From: a virus
Length of the DNA: 12,748 bases
UHGV virus genome: UHGV-1672213
Direction: 5' to 3' (one strand)
A program made the position numbers and the translations under genes. Shown piece after piece: positions 2,502 to 12,181 of this stretch. The notes below the pieces were generated by a model. That model did no database searches and had not been told where the DNA came from. It saw only the letters and a list, made by a program, of their open reading frames with translations. Every line of letters starts with the position of its first letter. Position 1 is the first letter of the stretch.

Positions 2502-3707
2502 TTACGCCGCTGCAATCTTCAGCAGTTTGATGGCCTGCGAATCGACCAGCATCCCGCCGGTGCGCTTGGTGGTATAAAAACCGACAAACGGTTTATTGGT
2601 GTACGGGTCACGCAGAATGCGGGTGCCGATACGGTCAACGATGGTGTAACCCCGTTTGAAGTTACCAAATGCAATGGCTTTCGCATCAGCGGCGATATCC
2701 GGCATCTGTTCGTTTTCAGCGATACCGTAACCCGCCAGAGAGGACGGCTGCCCCAGTTCCAGCCCCGGACGCCACAGATAGTTACCCTCGGTGTCTTTCA
2801 GCAGACGGATGGCAAACAGGCTGTTGTTGTTCATCATGAACTTCGCGCCAGTGCGGTGTGCCTTACGCAGCGTGTAAATCAGTTTGATAATGGCGTCTGC
2901 GGTCACCGCAGTCGCGTCGCCGGATACAATATGCTGAAGTTTGCCGAACGCCCGGACCTTATCGGTTTCATCAGTGGATTCATACGCCAGGAACCCTTTC
3001 GGCTTCTTGGTGCCATCGCCTGAGGTAAAGGCAATTTCTTCCTGTTCGGCAAATTCGGTTGCCAGCTCGCTGTTGATCCAGGCCTCCACGTTGAAAAAGG
3101 CATCGTCCAGCATTTTCTGGGTGGCCTGCGGGTTACCGTAGATTTCCCCCATGAGAGGTTCAATCAGCTCCAGTCTGGAGGTGGCAGTCTGGGATCGCGT
3201 ATCCGTTTCCCCCACCCATCCGGAAGCCGTACCGCCCAGATTCACCAGTTTTTTGTAGTCGGAACCGCCAACGGTGATCACCGTGGCTTCCTGACGCATC
3301 ACCACTTCATCTTTAAGCAGGTTGAGAATGTTGCGATCCAGCGCTTCCGGCACGGCGTAGCCACCGTCTTCATCGGTACCCACCTGCAATGCCTTACGCT
3401 CCAGATCGCGCAGACCGTCTTCACGGCCTTTACGCAGGAAGCCCACAAACGCCTCTTTATGCTCGGTGGCCAGTTTATTTTGCGCTCCACCTGCCGGACG
3501 TTTCAGCTCAAGCAGCTCTTTTTCAAGGTCGCTTTTGAGATTTTCCAGCTCGCTGAGTTTCCCGTTCAGGGTTTCCACCTGCCCGGCAAGCTTGCCTTTT
3601 TCCTGCTCAATCGCATCCACGCGCTTGTCGTTCTTTGCTTTGAAGTCGTCAAACTTCTGCTGCAGCTCCTGCGCGACCTGTTCGACATCTTTAATATCAA
3701 CCGCCAT
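2502..3707 (-). CDS. Major capsid protein, HK97 family, with N-terminal coiled-coil delta (scaffold) domain
   Basis: ATG at 3705-3707 with SD AGGAG 7 nt upstream; 401 aa; N-terminal ~100 aa coiled-coil (KLSELENLKSDLEKELLELK) followed by an HK97-type capsid fold region. Confidence 0.9.
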   Translation of the reverse strand: MAVDIKDVEQVAQELQQKFDDFKAKNDKRVDAIEQEKGKLAGQVETLNGKLSELENLKSDLEKELLELKRPAGGAQNKLATEHKEAFVGFLRKGREDGLRDLERKALQVGTDEDGGYAVPEALDRNILNLLKDEVVMRQEATVITVGGSDYKKLVNLGGTASGWVGETDTRSQTATSRLELIEPLMGEIYGNPQATQKMLDDAFFNVEAWINSELATEFAEQEEIAFTSGDGTKKPKGFLAYESTDETDKVRAFGKLQHIVSGDATAVTADAIIKLIYTLRKAHRTGAKFMMNNNSLFAIRLLKDTEGNYLWRPGLELGQPSSLAGYGIAENEQMPDIAADAKAIAFGNFKRGYTIVDRIGTRILRDPYTNKPFVGFYTTKRTGGMLVDSQAIKLLKIAAA

Positions 3708-3721
3708 CGTATTTCTCCTGA

Positions 3722-4372
3722 TTAGAAGTTCAGATTTTTCAGTGCATTCAGTGCAGAGCCCACATCCTCAGCGTCGCGCAGGGACAGTGCGCCATAGCCC
3801 CCGGCCATGAATGCTTTGGCCTGGGTACGGGAGAGTCCGACATCACGCAGGACTCTTTCGATTTTTTTCTGTTCGGGGATTTCCCCGCGGGCCAGCGCGT
3901 TCTTGACGTCGCTGATCCGCGCCTCGTCGTTAGATGGAAACGTCACCAGACTGACTTCCCAGAGGTCGATTTCTTTCAGCAGAAAGGCTTCTTTCGTCCG
4001 GTCGTATTCCCAGTCCTTCAGGACGTACCCAATAGAAAGGCCGGTTAACGAACCGGCCTTCATGTGTGCATGTGCGCGTTTTGCCAGGGGATCATCATCA
4101 ATGAGCAACCGTCCCCTGACGTAAAGCCCGACATCGTCTTCCTTCATTTCGGTGTAAACACCGATGGGTTCATCCATGCGGTGCTGCCAGAGCAGCGCAG
4201 GTAACGCTTTTCTGTCACTCCACGCCCGCAGGGAAGCAGCAAATGCCCCGGACATCACCACATCATCGTGGCTGTCCTTTACACCAAAGACGGAGCCATA
4301 CCCTTCAAACTCACCGGAGTCACTGACAGATTTCAGACTCAGCGGTACATCAAGACGTTGTTTCGTCTGCAT
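3722..4372 (-). CDS. Prohead maturation protease, HK97 family
   Basis: Motif EFEGYGSVFGVKDSHDDVVMSGAF typical of HK97 prohead proteases. Start reassigned to ATG 4370-4372 (MQTKQ..., SD AAGGA 8 nt upstream); the track start at 4408 lacks an SD and overlaps portal by 59 nt. Confidence 0.8.
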   Translation of the reverse strand: MQTKQRLDVPLSLKSVSDSGEFEGYGSVFGVKDSHDDVVMSGAFAASLRAWSDRKALPALLWQHRMDEPIGVYTEMKEDDVGLYVRGRLLIDDDPLAKRAHAHMKAGSLTGLSIGYVLKDWEYDRTKEAFLLKEIDLWEVSLVTFPSNDEARISDVKNALARGEIPEQKKIERVLRDVGLSRTQAKAFMAGGYGALSLRDAEDVGSALNALKNLNF

Positions 4373-8520: not shown

Positions 8521-8550
8521 TAGACAGAAAAAACACCGGATAAGATCTGG

Positions 8551-8754
8551 TCATTCTTCCTTTTTAATAATGACTTCTCGAGGGCGCAATTGTTGGATAG
8601 CACGACAAATACAATATGGAATAACTGCCCATGCTACTCCCATTGCTGCACCTGCAGCCTGTTGTGGAGCACTCTGAGCACCGAAAACCCCGAGGATTCC
8701 TTCAATAAATCCAATAGCACTACACAAAAGACTGATGACCCAGAGAATTTTCAT
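8551..8754 (-). CDS. Small membrane protein (67 aa, two predicted TM segments, basic C-terminus)
   Basis: ATG at 8752-8754 with consensus SD AAGGAG 9 nt upstream; sample stretch 8701-8760 counts about 35% GC versus about 63% in a structural-gene stretch; followed by its own terminator. Confidence 0.6.
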   Translation of the reverse strand: MKILWVISLLCSAIGFIEGILGVFGAQSAPQQAAGAAMGVAWAVIPYCICRAIQQLRPREVIIKKEE

Positions 8755-8871
8755 AAACCCAAACTCCTTTTAAATAAACACATTACTAGGATAATTCTCA
8801 TAAAATGTTAGTAAAGTATTTTCAGGAAAATAGCGTATCACTGCCTATTTTTGACACTGATGCTGGGATAA

Positions 8872-9246
8872 TTATTCCGGTCGCTGGAGTTGCTCATGAT
8901 GATACAGAGCGAGAATCAGGTCATAAGACCCTTGCCTGTCTTTGTAACCAGTTTTATCAACCAATTCAGCTTTACTGATTCCGGGTAAATCAAGAATCAG
9001 ATTCGCAACTTCAATTGCCCTTTGGTACAACTTACCGCCCTTTTTCTCCCCATGCAGTGGTTTTACATTCTTCAGGTAACCGCTATCCGCCAGGGCGAGA
9101 AATGTTGCCCTTGGGCATATCTTCTTTCTTGACGATTCGCTTTCTGTAACCTCTGCGACAGCTGCATCCCATGCATCACGAGGAGTCATTGAGCTATCAG
9201 CCACCAAATGATAAGCGATTAAAGCAACGTGAGCGTATTGAGACAT
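8872..9246 (-). CDS. Hypothetical cytoplasmic protein (124 aa), cargo island
   Basis: ATG at 9244-9246; no signal peptide or TM; AT-rich context; family not recognised. Confidence 0.55.
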   Translation of the reverse strand: MSQYAHVALIAYHLVADSSMTPRDAWDAAVAEVTESESSRKKICPRATFLALADSGYLKNVKPLHGEKKGGKLYQRAIEVANLILDLPGISKAELVDKTGYKDRQGSYDLILALYHHEQLQRPE

Positions 9247-9284
9247 AATGCATCCATATACAAAAATCTAATGATAAGACTTTT

Positions 9285-9728: not shown

Positions 9729-10201
9729 GCCTCAATCTCTCTTACCGTTCCGCCAGCTTCTTTGAATTTTGCAATCAGGCTGTCAGCCTTATGCTCGAAC
9801 TGACCGTAACCAGCCCCCGGCAGTGAAGCCCAGATATTGCTGCAACGGTCGATAGCCTGACGAATATCGCCGCGATCAATCATTGGTAAAGCGCCACGCT
9901 CTTTAATCTGCTGCAGCGCAACAGCATCCTGGCTTTTCGGAGAGAAGTCTTTCAGGCCAAGCTGCTTACGGTAGGCATCCCACCAACGGGAAAGAAGCTG
10001 GTAGCGTCCGGCGGCTGTTGATTTGAGTTTGGGGTTTAGCGTGACAAGTTTGCGAGGGTGATCGGAGTAATCAGTGAATAGCTCTCCGCCAACAATGACG
10101 TCATAACCATGATTTCTGGTTTTCTGCCGTCCGTTATCCGTTCCTTCTGACCATGCCACCATATCGAGGAAAGCCTTACGCTGAGGATTAAGATTTTGCA
10201 T
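9725..10201 (-). CDS. R: Endolysin, lambda R-type lytic transglycosylase
   Basis: 158 aa, near-identical by recall to lambda R ([54 protein letters not shown]...), including the catalytic Glu in WSEGT. Confidence 0.95.
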
Positions 10202-10505
10202 TTTTCACCCCTGTCAGTCGTTCCCAGAAGTACGTCAGTGCAACCGAACCCATCGCACCACTAATCCCCGCTGTCGCGAGAATCATGTAAATACTGAATC
10301 CACTTTCGATGCTGATCAGGCCACCAATAACACCGGTGAATCCTGATACCACTATCTGAGCCAGAGCATTTATCCAACTCCACGTTGCTTTACTCTGCTT
10401 CACATCTATCAGGTAGCGGACCAGACCGCCCCAACCTGCGATGATCAGCAAAACGAGCCAGAACGCTCCGGCAAGGCTCTCTTTTTCGTGCATATGAATA
10501 GCCAA
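10188..10505 (-). CDS. Putative holin (3 predicted TM helices), not lambda S-like
   Basis: Immediately upstream of R; 101-105 aa with three hydrophobic segments and a charged C-terminus. Start ambiguous: TTG at 10503-10505 or ATG at 10491-10493, neither with a strong SD. Confidence 0.7.
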   Translation of the reverse strand: MAIHMHEKESLAGAFWLVLLIIAGWGGLVRYLIDVKQSKATWSWINALAQIVVSGFTGVIGGLISIESGFSIYMILATAGISGAMGSVALTYFWERLTGVKNAKS

Positions 10506-10534
10506 TGTTTCGCCGCCGACAAAAGGCCGGGACG

Positions 10535-11032
10535 TTAAATGTCAGAAATCAGACTCACGGGGTAATTTAACGACAAAGCACGGAGTTGAAGATCCCCACA
10601 AGCCTGGAATAAAAAAGCCAGCGACAGGCTGGCAATGTGAGGGTAACGCAAAGTGCTTAGAAACAAAAAAAGGCCGCCATCGGCGACCTTCGAGGTATCT
10701 AGCGTGCTGGATACTTTCAGCTTCGCCTTCAATTCAGCGTTGATTTCTTTCAGGCGATCAACATCGTTTTTAAGTTTTTCAATGTCTTGCCCTTTATTAT
10801 CAAGGTCGCGCTGAAGACCTTTAATAATTTCTGTTTGGGCCGCCTGTACTTCTCGTGTCGTCTGGAGAGACTTATCAATATCATCAACTTGGTTAATCAA
10901 GCGTGTACCGAAAAAGCCTACAACTAACATAGTTATCCCAACCATAAAGTTGAGAACCCAGACTTTTGTTCCGGAAGCAGTGTTTGGAGTTTCGTCGATA
11001 AAGTGCACCTTATGCCAGTTAAAGTTACCCAA
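10535..11032 (-). CDS. Hypothetical membrane-anchored coiled-coil protein; boundaries doubtful
   Basis: N-terminal TM (VWVLNFMVGITMLVVGFFG) followed by a heptad-rich stretch (DIEKLKNDVDRLKEINAELKAKLK). The only in-frame starts are TTG at 11030-11032 or GTG eight codons later, without a clear SD, and the frame reads through two intrinsic terminator hairpins. Confidence 0.3.
   Translation of the reverse strand: MGNFNWHKVHFIDETPNTASGTKVWVLNFMVGITMLVVGFFGTRLINQVDDIDKSLQTTREVQAAQTEIIKGLQRDLDNKGQDIEKLKNDVDRLKEINAELKAKLKVSSTLDTSKVADGGLFLFLSTLRYPHIASLSLAFLFQACGDLQLRALSLNYPVSLISDI
10609..10633 (-). terminator. Intrinsic terminator (distal of a tandem pair upstream of the holin)
   Basis: Minus-strand stem GCCAGC/GCTGGC with 5-nt loop, followed by UUUUUU (plus-strand A run 10611-10616). 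Confidence 0.55.
10662..10688 (-). terminator. Intrinsic terminator (proximal of the tandem pair)
   Basis: Minus-strand stem GGUCGCC/GGCGGCC (7 bp, one G-U) with 3-nt loop, followed by UUUUUUUG (plus-strand A run 10664-10670). Confidence 0.55.
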
Positions 11033-11120
11033 CGTCTGCGCAGATCGTTAGATTCGGCAACATTGTAACTGGATAAGGAATAGAAAACCTTGGAATTTTA
11101 AGAAGAAACTGATTGATCGA

Positions 11121-11210
11121 TTATTTAACGAGCGAACACATCCATACACCCCAGACGGGTACTACGACAAAGGCCATGAAATAAGTAACTTTTGCTTGAA
11201 TGTTTTGCAT
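11121..11210 (-). CDS. Candidate small hydrophobic peptide (29 aa)
   Basis: ATG at 11208-11210 preceded by SD AAGGAAG; translation MQNIQAKVTYFMAFVVVPVWGVWMCSLVK has a single hydrophobic helix and a C-terminal Lys; stop TAA at 11121-11123. Below the ORF-track size cutoff. Confidence 0.35.
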   Translation of the reverse strand: MQNIQAKVTYFMAFVVVPVWGVWMCSLVK

Positions 11211-11395
11211 TTCGCTTCCTTAGCAGTCCGATAAGTACTGTCTGCTCATCCAACCTAACGAATGTAGATCAGAATGACAAGTCTTTCGCGCTAATTTCAA
11301 TTTGATATCTCTTCGTAAACATGATGGCGCGAAATATTACGCATGAAGTGCTTCTACATCAACATAAAAGTTACTTTTTTTGTGTTCACAGCATG

Positions 11396-11425
11396 TAAAG
11401 TAAAAGCCCCGCACGATGGCGAGGC
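11396..11425 (-). terminator. tR'-like intrinsic terminator downstream of the Q gene
   Basis: Minus-strand stem GCCUCGC/GCGGGGC (7 bp, one G-U) with 6-nt loop, followed by UUUUACUUUA. Confidence 0.55.
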
Positions 11426-11479
11426 TGTTAATTCTTTGTCGACCAACAAAGCTATGGCGACGATATCAGATTTACATGA

Positions 11480-11508
11480 AATATAAGCGTTTCAGTTCGG
11501 TTTTGCAA
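11480..11508 (-). promoter_or_regulatory. PR'-like sigma70 late promoter (putative Q engagement region)
   Basis: Minus strand: -35 TTGCAA (11503-11508), 17-nt spacer, -10 TATATT (11480-11485). The -35 overlaps the last Q codons; the predicted start is about 50-75 nt upstream of the tR'-like terminator, matching lambdoid PR'-qut-tR' layout. Confidence 0.45.
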
Positions 11509-12181
11509 GACTTACGTGCAAACTTGTCGCCTTTTGTTGTGAACGTGATCGCGTTACTGAGATAAGCGCACCGCTATCGAGTCGCATAAAGCAGCTACGC
11601 ATTGCCAACCAGTGAGGCAGGTATGTCTCTGTCCAGGTGGATTTCGCCACGCCAACCAGTTCCGCCAGCTTCTGGTATTCGTAGGCATCTTTCCCGACCA
11701 ACCCTGCTTTGACATCCTGCGCTGCCAGCCATATCAGCTTCTTCAGGCGCTCCATGGTCTTGCCTGCCACCCTCTTCGCGCCGAGATACCCCCTGAATTC
11801 AGACCACGCCCACTGGGTGATCGCCACCTGGTATTCAAAGCTGATGTTTTCACTGTAACTCCACAGCAACCACGCTTTCTGATGTTCTTCGAGAGACAGA
11901 ACCGCGCGGCGCCATGAAGATGTTGAGAACTCAACCTGGCTGACCAGTGCAATGGATGAACCTTTTGCGTACGACTGCTTACCGGAAATCGGCGGATTAT
12001 CCAGCGTAATCATCTTGCCCGTTACCTCATCCAGAATGCGCGGCTTCTTTCGTTTATATGTACCAGTATCAAATTGTGCATGCTCCAGCCAGGCTTCAAG
12101 CTGGCCTTTCGTTGCTCCGCTCAAATCAGCAGTAGCCACAATGAGTTGCTCGCGGACATACTGTAAATATTGGGTATTCAT
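11492..12181 (-). CDS. Putative late-gene antiterminator Q (non-lambda type)
   Basis: 229 aa; ATG overlaps the ylcG stop; sits between rusA-ylcG and the lysis genes, the canonical Q position, and is followed by a promoter and terminator. Sequence family not confirmed. Confidence 0.65.
   Translation of the reverse strand: MNTQYLQYVREQLIVATADLSGATKGQLEAWLEHAQFDTGTYKRKKPRILDEVTGKMITLDNPPISGKQSYAKGSSIALVSQVEFSTSSWRRAVLSLEEHQKAWLLWSYSENISFEYQVAITQWAWSEFRGYLGAKRVAGKTMERLKKLIWLAAQDVKAGLVGKDAYEYQKLAELVGVAKSTWTETYLPHWLAMRSCFMRLDSGALISVTRSRSQQKATSLHVSLAKPN

Follow-up and report, generated by a model that had tools for sequence, protein, structure and literature searches.

In the viral genome UHGV-1672213, an island of AT-rich DNA is situated between the gene for the Q antiterminator and the lysis genes. 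The window (the whole stretch of DNA that was analysed) comprises 12,748 nucleotides (nt); all coordinates refer to its full length, and every gene in the island region is found on the minus strand. The GC content of the island is about 0.40 (0.38-0.46 over 10500-11550), compared with 0.50-0.56 on both flanks, so that the AT-rich character noted in an earlier sequence-only reading holds. That reading described one open reading frame (ORF) here, with a transmembrane (TM) segment and a coiled coil, and considered that it might be a decaying gene. With high confidence, as far as the descriptive anatomy goes, the island can be described as a conserved, self-contained and uncharacterised cargo cassette of two genes. 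Its features are, in the direction of transcription:

11326..11362, minus strand: predicted sigma-70 promoter, with the -35 element TTGATG (11362-11357), a 17-nt spacer and the -10 element TAATAT (11339-11334)
11211..11325, minus strand: 5' leader, ~115 nt; the hairpins at its 5' end are clade-specific, and a stem closes right before the invariant Shine-Dalgarno (SD) sequence CTAAGGA (11223-11217)
11121..11210, minus strand: small ORF of 29 codons, MQNIQAKVTYFMAFVVVPVWGVWMCSLVK, with a strong SD; predicted single-pass membrane peptide
11000..11120, minus strand: spacer of about 120 nt with an AAAGRYYTT box, a TAnAAT box (11067-11062), a hairpin (11053-11027) and an SD-like TAAGG (11012-11008)
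10535..11032, minus strand: large ORF as delimited mechanically, 165 codons, from TTG at 11032 to TAA at 10537-10535
10665..10999, minus strand: conserved coding core of the large ORF, consisting of an N-tail, a TM segment (VWVLNFMVGITMLVVGFFG), a coiled coil, the sequence ...SSTLDTSK and the hairpin-encoded VADGGLF
10691-10669, minus strand: terminator 1, stem GAAGGTCGCC / GGCGGCCTTT, loop GAT, with a run of seven T (to ~10665); -15.4 kcal/mol, z=-3.1
10633-10617, minus strand: terminator 2, GCCAGC-CTGTC-GCTGGC, with a run of six T (to 10611); -10.9 kcal/mol, z=-3.2
10535..10664, minus strand: tail of the large ORF past the T-run of terminator 1, 43 codons, unconserved

Versions of the cassette were collected by scans of viral and metagenomic contigs. 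These raised the sample to 73 loci and later to 119 locus entries, from which 51 non-redundant complete versions were obtained. Exact-protein look-ups also added diversity, and a strict degenerate-pattern scan of genome contigs yielded just 3 loci. The multi-locus alignment was built from eleven divergent loci.

The small ORF is present in 51/51 versions and is always exactly 29 codons long, with ATG (15 versions) or TTG (36 versions) as start codon. Its consensus reads M-N-K-I-Q-P-x-V-V-Y-T-M-T-F-x-V-I-P-V-W-G-x-W-L-x-S-L-I-K. The ratio of nonsynonymous to synonymous substitution rates (dN/dS) is 0.26, against 0.85 and 1.78 in the other two frames. When the DNA-pattern scan was run for the small ORF alone, 15 further contigs were found, and the large ORF was there too in all those with enough downstream sequence (12/12). 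With the exception of three versions (249, 271 and 290 nt), the stop of the small ORF is separated from the EVQ motif by 266-272 nt. Judged from this pattern, the two ORFs appear to be an obligate pair with nearly fixed spacing.

The small protein has no family in Pfam, PHROGs, NCBIfam or PADLOC. It resembles the toxins of type I toxin-antitoxin systems in being shorter than 60 residues and hydrophobic (Kyte-Doolittle 2.11) and in having a long 5' leader. A consistent antisense promoter or terminator was not found in three divergent loci and there was no Rfam match, which is a weak test of such a system. The peptide has no lipobox, and the Serratia versions lack any Cys. The 29-codon ORF is almost never annotated in public records, and it was missed by the sequence-only reading, as were the promoter at 11362-11334 and an isrJ-like RNA further upstream.

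The second gene is the large ORF. If the mRNA stops at terminator 1, its product has about 111 residues. Coding selection is seen in all three protein segments, with a dN/dS of 0.34 in the N-tail, 0.25 in the TM segment and 0.21 in the coiled coil. The best 19-residue Kyte-Doolittle window coincides with VWVLNFMVGITMLVVGFFG (2.05), and AlphaFold2 predicts one continuous helix over residues 7-106 (predicted local distance difference test score, pLDDT, 70.8), with the hairpin-encoded end disordered. This agrees with the TM segment and coiled coil that had been read from the sequence. The predicted topology is one TM segment within one long helix; the charges flanking the TM segment give no clear orientation.

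A decaying pseudogene, with a frame that stays open by chance, could at first sight explain several features of the large ORF: it has no canonical start, its stop lies far past two terminators, and its N-terminus has been annotated in five ways. One copy has in fact decayed. In L056 (IMGVR_UViG_3300045999_004592) a deletion of ~19 nt breaks the frame of the large ORF in its N-terminal region. Nevertheless, this reading is already refuted by the comparative data. The three protein segments and the partner ORF are under purifying selection (for the large ORF, dN/dS 0.21-0.34 against 0.75-1.7 off-frame), and the same architecture, including the read-through of terminator 1, is found in 50/51 versions from seven genera. 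The sequence-only reading would have seen a sign that the present copy is a pseudogene if relatives had an intact ORF that starts properly and stops ahead of the hairpins. A single divergent relative, L129, is of that kind. The window copy is therefore no pseudogene but represents what is normal in its clade.

For the start of the large ORF, several sites have been annotated. In near-identical genomes, PGAP placed it at GTG (11008) or at ATG (10930) and named the product 'hypothetical', and public entries for the E. coli/Salmonella protein (P0001 cluster) come in five lengths of 131, 134, 136, 157 and 165 residues. All five N-termini are probably wrong. The frame upstream of 10999 is not conserved among the loci, where it is interrupted by 1-nt indels and in-frame stops; in Enterobacter, a 1-nt insertion shifts the frame. 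In L053, L037, L024, L032 and L064, in-frame stops occur 1-8 codons upstream, and no ATG, GTG or TTG precedes the sequence N-(T/S)-A-S-G-x-K-V-W. All 51 versions share an SD-like (T)AAGG (GAGGTGAT in Serratia) followed 8-10 nt on by AT(A/C), and never by ATG. The codon at the start position is ATA in 44 versions and ATC in 7, including the window (10999-10997, 8 nt past the SD). The earlier statement that the ORF has no ATG/SD start is thus half right: a conserved canonical start at the proper spacing is indeed absent, whereas an SD is present as the invariant (T)AAGG at 11012-11008.

The N-tail that follows this codon has a dN/dS of 0.34, against 0.75 and 0.91 off-frame, and it completes the TM segment to 19-20 residues. 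The internal ATGs can therefore not be the general start. Those at 10945 and 10930 would moreover cut into the TM segment and are absent in Klebsiella. The TTG at 11032 and the GTG at 11008 were rejected as conserved starts because the frame upstream is broken and because Klebsiella and Kosakonia have GTA at the GTG site. Termination-reinitiation was rejected as well, since no upstream ORF ends near the SD.

From the aligned versions, the most economical reading would be a conserved near-cognate AUA/AUC start that holds translation very low. In E. coli, AUA and AUC initiate at 1-2% of the level of AUG (bioRxiv 10.1101/063800). The change from ATA to ATG is a single transition, yet it has occurred in 0/51 versions, which argues for selection against efficient initiation.

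At its other end, the large ORF continues through a terminator. The mechanical ORF from 11032 to 10535 does run through two hairpins, as first described, and both fold better than expected (z=-3.1 and -3.2). The two are, however, of different standing. The frame is open across the stem and T-run of terminator 1 in 50/51 versions, and the stop always falls at least 10 nt past the stem. Each of the fifteen distinct stems that were found pairs without a mismatch, and at positions 3-7 of the stem two or three types of base pair occur. For this comparison the stems were registered from the loop outward by a script, as MAFFT placed stems with 3- and 4-nt loops out of register. The structure of terminator 1 is, in view of these compensatory changes, selected as RNA. 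The encoded residues are dictated by the hairpin and differ accordingly: the window has K-V-A-D-G-G-L-F, Enterobacter E-P-P-S-G-G-F-F and Serratia K-A-A-P-R-G-G-F-F.

Over the 14-16 codons that end at the T-run, in-frame stops occur in 0/23 distinct sequences, as opposed to 17/23 and 12/23 in the other frames. The off-frame stops include TGA or TAA at the stem foot and a TAA inside one loop variant. Beyond the T-run the picture changes: 35 distinct tails of 2-55 codons (mean 24.8) show no conservation, and their stops are placed nearly at random. The 43-codon tail of the window is probably not part of the functional product. A frame that stays open by chance, as had been considered, is hence contradicted at terminator 1, and it does apply to terminator 2. 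Slippage into the -1 frame at the T-run was also considered and rejected, as hairpin and slippery sequence come in the wrong order.

One exception is informative. L129 (protein P0046) is the most divergent clear member of the family. It occupies the same slot and has a small ORF, of 30 codons, and the start arrangement TAAGG-N8-ATA. Its large ORF closes with ...LKGKK-TAA, and an ordinary terminator follows 11 nt further on. Read-through, a trait of the main clade, is therefore dispensable for the function of the protein; it was either gained once and kept, or lost once. In L129, tandem repeats at 3640-3740 (TGGTTCTAGA x4, AAAACGATACT x3) replace the promoter region upstream of the small ORF.

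The order in L129 is the starting point for the main rival to the mechanism that is proposed below. The ancestor of the main clade may simply have lost the stop before the terminator, after which the hairpin-encoded residues were tolerated. The cassette would then be ordinary lysogenic-conversion cargo expressed at a low level, with enough protein escaping tagging or being released by ArfA/ArfB. Such a frozen accident fits the ordinary stop-then-terminator order of L129 in the same slot, and it fits the hairpin codons, which are free of protein-level selection (dN/dS 0.76, equal to the off-frame controls). GC-rich stems also offer few one-step paths to stop codons, and the tails look random. 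It fits less well with the divergence of the clade: at a dS (synonymous divergence) of ~1 the stem has been rebuilt at least 15 times without an in-frame stop, even though 52-74% of the sequences have stops in the other frames. In addition, ATG is avoided at the start in 51/51 versions, so that two independent features that lower expression persist together. On balance a frozen accident is considered unlikely, but it is the strongest competitor.

Terminator 2 behaves differently from terminator 1. It is present and covarying (GCCAGC/GCTGGC, GCCCGC/GCGGGC, TCCGGC/GCCGGG) in E. coli, Klebsiella, Enterobacter and Raoultella, and the Serratia versions have no second terminator. It lies past the stop in L005, L006, L021 and L023, and in frame in the window lineage, L008, L015, L039/43/70 and L042. 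Its in-frame position in the window is a lineage-specific accident of where the stop falls.

This variability bears on another explanation, in which terminator 1 would be controlled by translation. A trailing ribosome would block hairpin 1, and translated transcripts would continue to terminator 2, the methyltransferase gene found downstream in some genera, or the lysis genes; only untranslated transcripts would stop at terminator 1. Coupled ribosomes are known to repress terminators inside or just after translated regions (PMC4824070), and many versions place their stop between terminator 1 and the second terminator. A near-cognate start would, however, make coupling rare. The frame covers the second hairpin in at least five lineages, and Serratia is without this terminator altogether. 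Where the stop falls with respect to terminator 2 is thus not conserved, a poor fit to a designed relay, in which its place would have to be fixed. Read-through into the holin gene would, furthermore, be lethal in a lysogen. Control of this kind is regarded as highly improbable.

Upstream of both ORFs, the predicted promoter is as conserved as the genes. The pattern TTGAnn-N16/17-TAnnAT followed by GCGCC is found in 51/51 versions, and the form TTGATA-16-TATAAT in 32/51. A consensus scanner called the promoter independently in L005, L013 and L026 (11/12, 10/12 and 11/12, respectively). Transcription is predicted to start at ~11327-11325. The GCGCC discriminator that follows the -10 element (11326-11333, minus strand) is invariant in 51/51 versions and recalls promoters with stringent or growth-rate control.

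The leader is 112-147 nt long across the versions. RNAalifold returned no consensus fold for it, Rfam no family, and its stems were noticed by eye only; the mRNA as a whole is not unusually stable (z=+0.4). For these reasons, a riboswitch-like leader is not proposed. At 11311 (minus strand), the window differs from three E. coli relatives by one G/C change, which falls in the small TGTT-TACG-AACA stem of the leader; the relatives have this stem intact, and it is weakened in the window.

Between the two ORFs, the spacer hairpin at 11053-11027 (-9.6 kcal/mol, z=-2.4) shows covariation. Five of its seven pairs occur as two or three Watson-Crick types (AT/GC, CG/GC, TA/CG), and 29-30 of 30 sequences are paired. 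The AAAGRYYTT box (~11080-11090) is found ~20 nt upstream of the TAnAAT box. Both boxes are present in all versions, without a good -35 partner, and might serve as an internal promoter or as a site where a protein binds.

Together these features suggest a composite mechanism in which a near-cognate start and a non-stop transcript throttle the large protein until Q relieves the block. We hold this mechanism tentatively, at slightly less than an even chance. From the cassette promoter, one transcript would be made that carries the small ORF, the spacer hairpin and the large ORF. The 29-residue membrane peptide would be well translated and could be made in the lysogen. The large product would be a bitopic protein of ~111 residues, with a short N-tail, one TM helix and one long coiled coil, and it would be hard to make, as a good SD is combined with a near-cognate AUA/AUC start. 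Because initiation at AUA/AUC would be rare, a coupled ribosome able to suppress the hairpin would seldom be present. Ordinary polymerase in the lysogen would end at terminator 1 and leave a non-stop message, with terminator 2 as a backstop that shields the holin gene. Ribosomes would run off the 3' end of this message and be rescued by transfer-messenger RNA (tmRNA), and the product would be tagged for degradation, as for arfA and brfA.

Q-modified polymerase ignores downstream terminators in lambda, 82 and 21. Once Q is made, terminator-resistant polymerase from the late promoter PR' could in the same way pass the tR' terminator, terminator 1 and terminator 2. Only such Q-antiterminated late transcripts would carry the large ORF with a stop codon. 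Stable large protein would then be expected only in lytic growth, or once trans-translation is overwhelmed.

The individual steps have precedents. In brfA and arfA, a terminator or hairpin within the ORF gives non-stop mRNA, and the SsrA-tagged products accumulate only without trans-translation (PMC6881298, PMC8012679). A terminator inside the ORF of a strongly translated gene was still ~40% as efficient and gave rise to non-stop mRNA, and a terminator late in an ORF stays substantially active if ribosome and polymerase are uncoupled (PMC4824070).

Several points weigh against the proposed mechanism. A non-stop design wastes any translation that takes place in the lysogen, and it is unclear why the cassette promoter would transcribe an ORF that is not expressible from it. 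The AUA/AUC start is an argument from parsimony, as most versions have some upstream in-frame TTG or GTG, albeit at inconsistent positions. The order in L129 could mean that read-through is a frozen accident of one clade. The TAnAAT box might act as a second promoter, and this would alter the picture. Finally, a tblastn search of 50,697 sequenced phage records gave no match to the large protein.

The composite mechanism can be taken one step further. Antitermination by Q would then set the fate of a protein as well as the length of a transcript, with a non-stop message and a degraded product in the absence of Q and a stop codon in its presence. That this is a new kind of switch is a more speculative proposal and seems somewhat unlikely. 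As a variant, the large protein might sense a collapse of initiation factor 3 (IF3) fidelity or of tmRNA capacity, for example during superinfection, and might act together with the 29-residue peptide as a trigger of abortive infection or lysis.

The closest parallels to the large ORF are arfA from E. coli and brfA from B. subtilis. In these genes, too, a terminator or hairpin lies within the ORF before the stop and the residues beyond it are dispensable. The cassette has kept this geometry, with the terminator upstream of the stop (50/51) and unconserved residues beyond it. However, arfA and brfA encode cytoplasmic ribosome-rescue factors that sense tmRNA capacity, whereas the ORF of the cassette encodes a predicted phage membrane protein. 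The cassette, known here from sequence, also differs in its near-cognate start and in its location downstream of an antiterminator that could override the terminator.

For the start codon, infC and pcnB offer the comparison. Both have AUU start codons, and a near-cognate AUH start (H being A, C or U) keeps expression low and makes it sensitive to IF3. They share with the cassette a conserved AUH start behind a good SD; the codon in the cassette is AUA or AUC, and its use is deduced from comparative sequence.

The kinds of parts are thus known ones: a moron, an in-ORF terminator that gives non-stop mRNA, and a near-cognate start. It is their combination that is new, together with a membrane protein as the payload and a position after an antiterminator by which the non-stop state could be reversed. 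In the libraries and the literature covered by the search, no description of the cassette or of either protein family was found. If the mechanism is true, this would be the first natural case outside ribosome rescue of an in-frame terminator kept by selection for a non-stop message, and the first phage antiterminator able to reverse the non-stop state. Q antitermination, trans-translation and start-codon fidelity would be joined in one locus of ~900 bp. Whatever the mechanism, a previously unrecognised two-protein family has been found, including a 29-residue membrane peptide that annotation pipelines almost never call.

The distribution of the cassette is that of mobile cargo. The whole island is found in only 3 of 5,426 complete E. 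coli genomes (98.5% identity), whereas 883 of them share the flanks alone. In a megablast of phages, the flanks were matched and the island was not. The slot between Q and the lysis genes holds three tRNAs in at least one related prophage (L004) and nothing in others. The two-protein family is present on hundreds of E. coli and Salmonella contigs, with a partial copy in Salmonella that is 100% identical. By protein searches, homologues down to ~45% identity were found in Klebsiella, Enterobacter, Kosakonia, Raoultella and Serratia, and their copies lie on contigs with prophage context.

The order of genes in the encoding contigs is constant: a Q-type antiterminator, a gap of ~460-590 nt, the gene with the large ORF, and the lysis cassette. 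On the Serratia and Kosakonia contigs, the large ORF is followed by a methyltransferase gene before the lysis genes begin. The Q proteins upstream fall into no fewer than four unrelated families (PF06323, PF03589, PF06530/DUF1133, and an unclassified protein of 214-223 residues). As the same slot is used behind at least four Q families, the unit has moved among phages whose late-control systems differ, and has kept its place in them.

A moron is a transcription unit in its own right (PMC3594210), and by sequence the cassette would qualify as one. It lies between conserved phage genes, is absent from close relatives, differs in base composition from the neighbouring phage genes, and has its own predicted promoter and terminator. 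The suggestion of the sequence-only reading that cargo occupies the Q-to-lysis slot is supported by the tRNAs, or nothing, in that slot of related prophages and by the predicted promoter and terminators. With lambdoid morons such as lambda bor/lom, HK97 gp15 and stx in the Q-S slot, the cassette shares its own promoter and terminator, deviant composition, patchy occurrence and Q-dependent late read-through (PMC3594210), the promoter, terminator and late read-through being predicted for the cassette. Unlike these, it consists of two genes with fixed internal spacing, of which the second would be near-silent from its own promoter, and it has no known function or family.

The large protein likewise remained without a family, and both proteins are labelled hypothetical in all public records. 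Pfam, PHROGs, NCBIfam and PADLOC gave nothing beyond sub-threshold coiled-coil noise, and Foldseek against the BFVD viral models gave no match to the AlphaFold2 helix. A profile search of 1.84 billion representative proteins returned a small family of about 16 clusters with a sharp boundary, beyond which the matches were coiled-coil noise. Outside the cassettes, P0051 is a probable remote homologue according to its sequence. This protein of 91 residues (L131, 4001-4276) has a predicted TM segment and coiled coil, shares FF-x-VR-x-x-NQ-x-D and L-x-RD-x-D with the family (hhalign 96.5%, 37% identity over 65 columns), and is encoded two genes upstream of an endolysin on an unrelated phage contig. 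The position of the cassette and that of P0051 near an endolysin point weakly to an envelope or lysis-related role.

The resemblance to an i-spanin or to YhcB proposed from the sequence holds for the architecture and fails for homology. Like i-spanins (Rz, LysB, DUF2570), the large protein has an N-terminal TM segment followed by a coiled coil, is encoded near lysis genes and gives weak PHROG matches; in contrast to them it is shorter, forms a single helix, has no conserved periplasmic cysteines, and is encoded upstream of the holin under its own predicted promoter. DUF1043 (YhcB/ZapG) gave no match at an E-value of 0.01 or better, and neither PF03245 nor PF10828 of Pfam matched. An Rz-like spanin group, phrog_739, was matched repeatedly, at sub-threshold level (window, E=5e-4; P0046, E=6.5e-7). 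A spanin identity was rejected, as hhalign of the family profile against three resident i-spanins (Rz, DUF2570) gave a probability of only 0.3-1.8%, no lipoprotein partner of the o-spanin type is present (the sole partner ORF encodes the 29-residue peptide), and the prophages already hold complete spanin pairs.

A broader possibility is that the pair is a lysis accessory, acting as an antiholin, a spanin-like protein or an envelope-remodelling factor and made mainly from the late transcript, rather than cargo that benefits the lysogen. Its location directly upstream of the holin in most loci, the phrog_739 matches and the neighbourhood of P0051 are in line with this, and such a role would be compatible with the Q-gated mechanism. 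On the other hand, the hhalign probabilities against the resident i-spanins do not exceed 2%, these prophages already contain complete sets of holin, endolysin and spanin, and a lipoprotein partner is missing. The cassette has its own strong predicted promoter and terminators, is separated from the lysis genes by a methyltransferase gene in Serratia and Kosakonia, and is absent from most related phages, so that it is not needed for lysis. A lysis accessory is accordingly judged distinctly unlikely.

The cassette is embedded in a late-control and lysis region, for which the following features were identified:

12677-12315, minus strand: rusA, followed by a ylcG-like ORF, both ahead of Q in the direction of transcription
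11492..12181, minus strand: Q antiterminator gene (PF06323, E=1.1e-91), annotated as 'bacteriophage antitermination protein Q' in 3 E. coli genomes
11508-11480, minus strand: PR'-like promoter (promoter scan 9/12)
11476-11403, minus strand: isrJ-like RNA (Rfam RF01393, 64.9 bits against a gathering score of 37, E=2e-11)
11426-11405, minus strand: tR'-like hairpin at the 3' end of the isrJ-like RNA (terminator scan; -14.1 kcal/mol, z=-3.6)
10188..10505, minus strand: holin gene (PF16083, E=8e-22), the first gene of the lysis cassette
10201-9725, minus strand: lysozyme ORF; PGAP names its counterparts in 3 near-identical E. coli genomes glycoside hydrolase family 24 / glycoside hydrolase family, and Pfam gave no match for the window's own ORF
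9728-9285, minus strand: Rz (PF03245), which contains an embedded Rz1-like ORF of 65 codons

A gene on the plus strand of the island was considered and rejected, as only short and unconserved ORFs are found there. Over the island, isrJ was the only Rfam hit, and it lies outside the cassette. This RNA would be the PR' transcript, that is, the unit of Q loading and termination at the 5' border of the cassette. Since it comes first, with its PR'-like promoter and tR', the cargo begins only past ~11400.

An isrJ homologue is also part of the Gifsy-1 locus antQ-isrK-orf45-anrP-isrJ. That locus resembles the window further in that a Q-like antiterminator is accompanied by a short RNA with a terminator, by a small ORF and by a downstream gene that is transcribed, yet stays untranslated until a switch (PMC4825925). 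It differs in that it encodes the anti-repressor-like AnrP and in that a trans-acting short RNA opens a ribosome-binding site, in place of a start codon and an in-frame terminator. No sequence similarity between the Gifsy-1 locus and the window was found past isrJ. In Gifsy-1, isrJ is placed after isrK-orf45-anrP and not straight after the Q-like gene (PMC4825925). Given its position behind Q in the window, 'IsrJ' may simply be the leader RNA of the late promoter.

At the 3' border, the identity to three E. coli relatives falls sharply over the last ~50 nt before the holin gene (~10510-10562). This drop is likely to be a recombination joint. The holin gene itself starts at 10491-10505 (minus strand) with TTG-GCT-ATT-CAT-ATG (M-A-I-H-M), where the first codon is ATG in three near-identical E. 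coli prophages. This resembles the dual-start motif of holin/antiholin genes, with the first start weakened in the window. Right after Rz/Rz1, a further AT-rich stretch (~8550-9250, GC 0.36-0.45) contains a DUF6979 ORF (9246-8872, minus strand, E=2e-28) and appears to be a second cargo slot in the same prophage.

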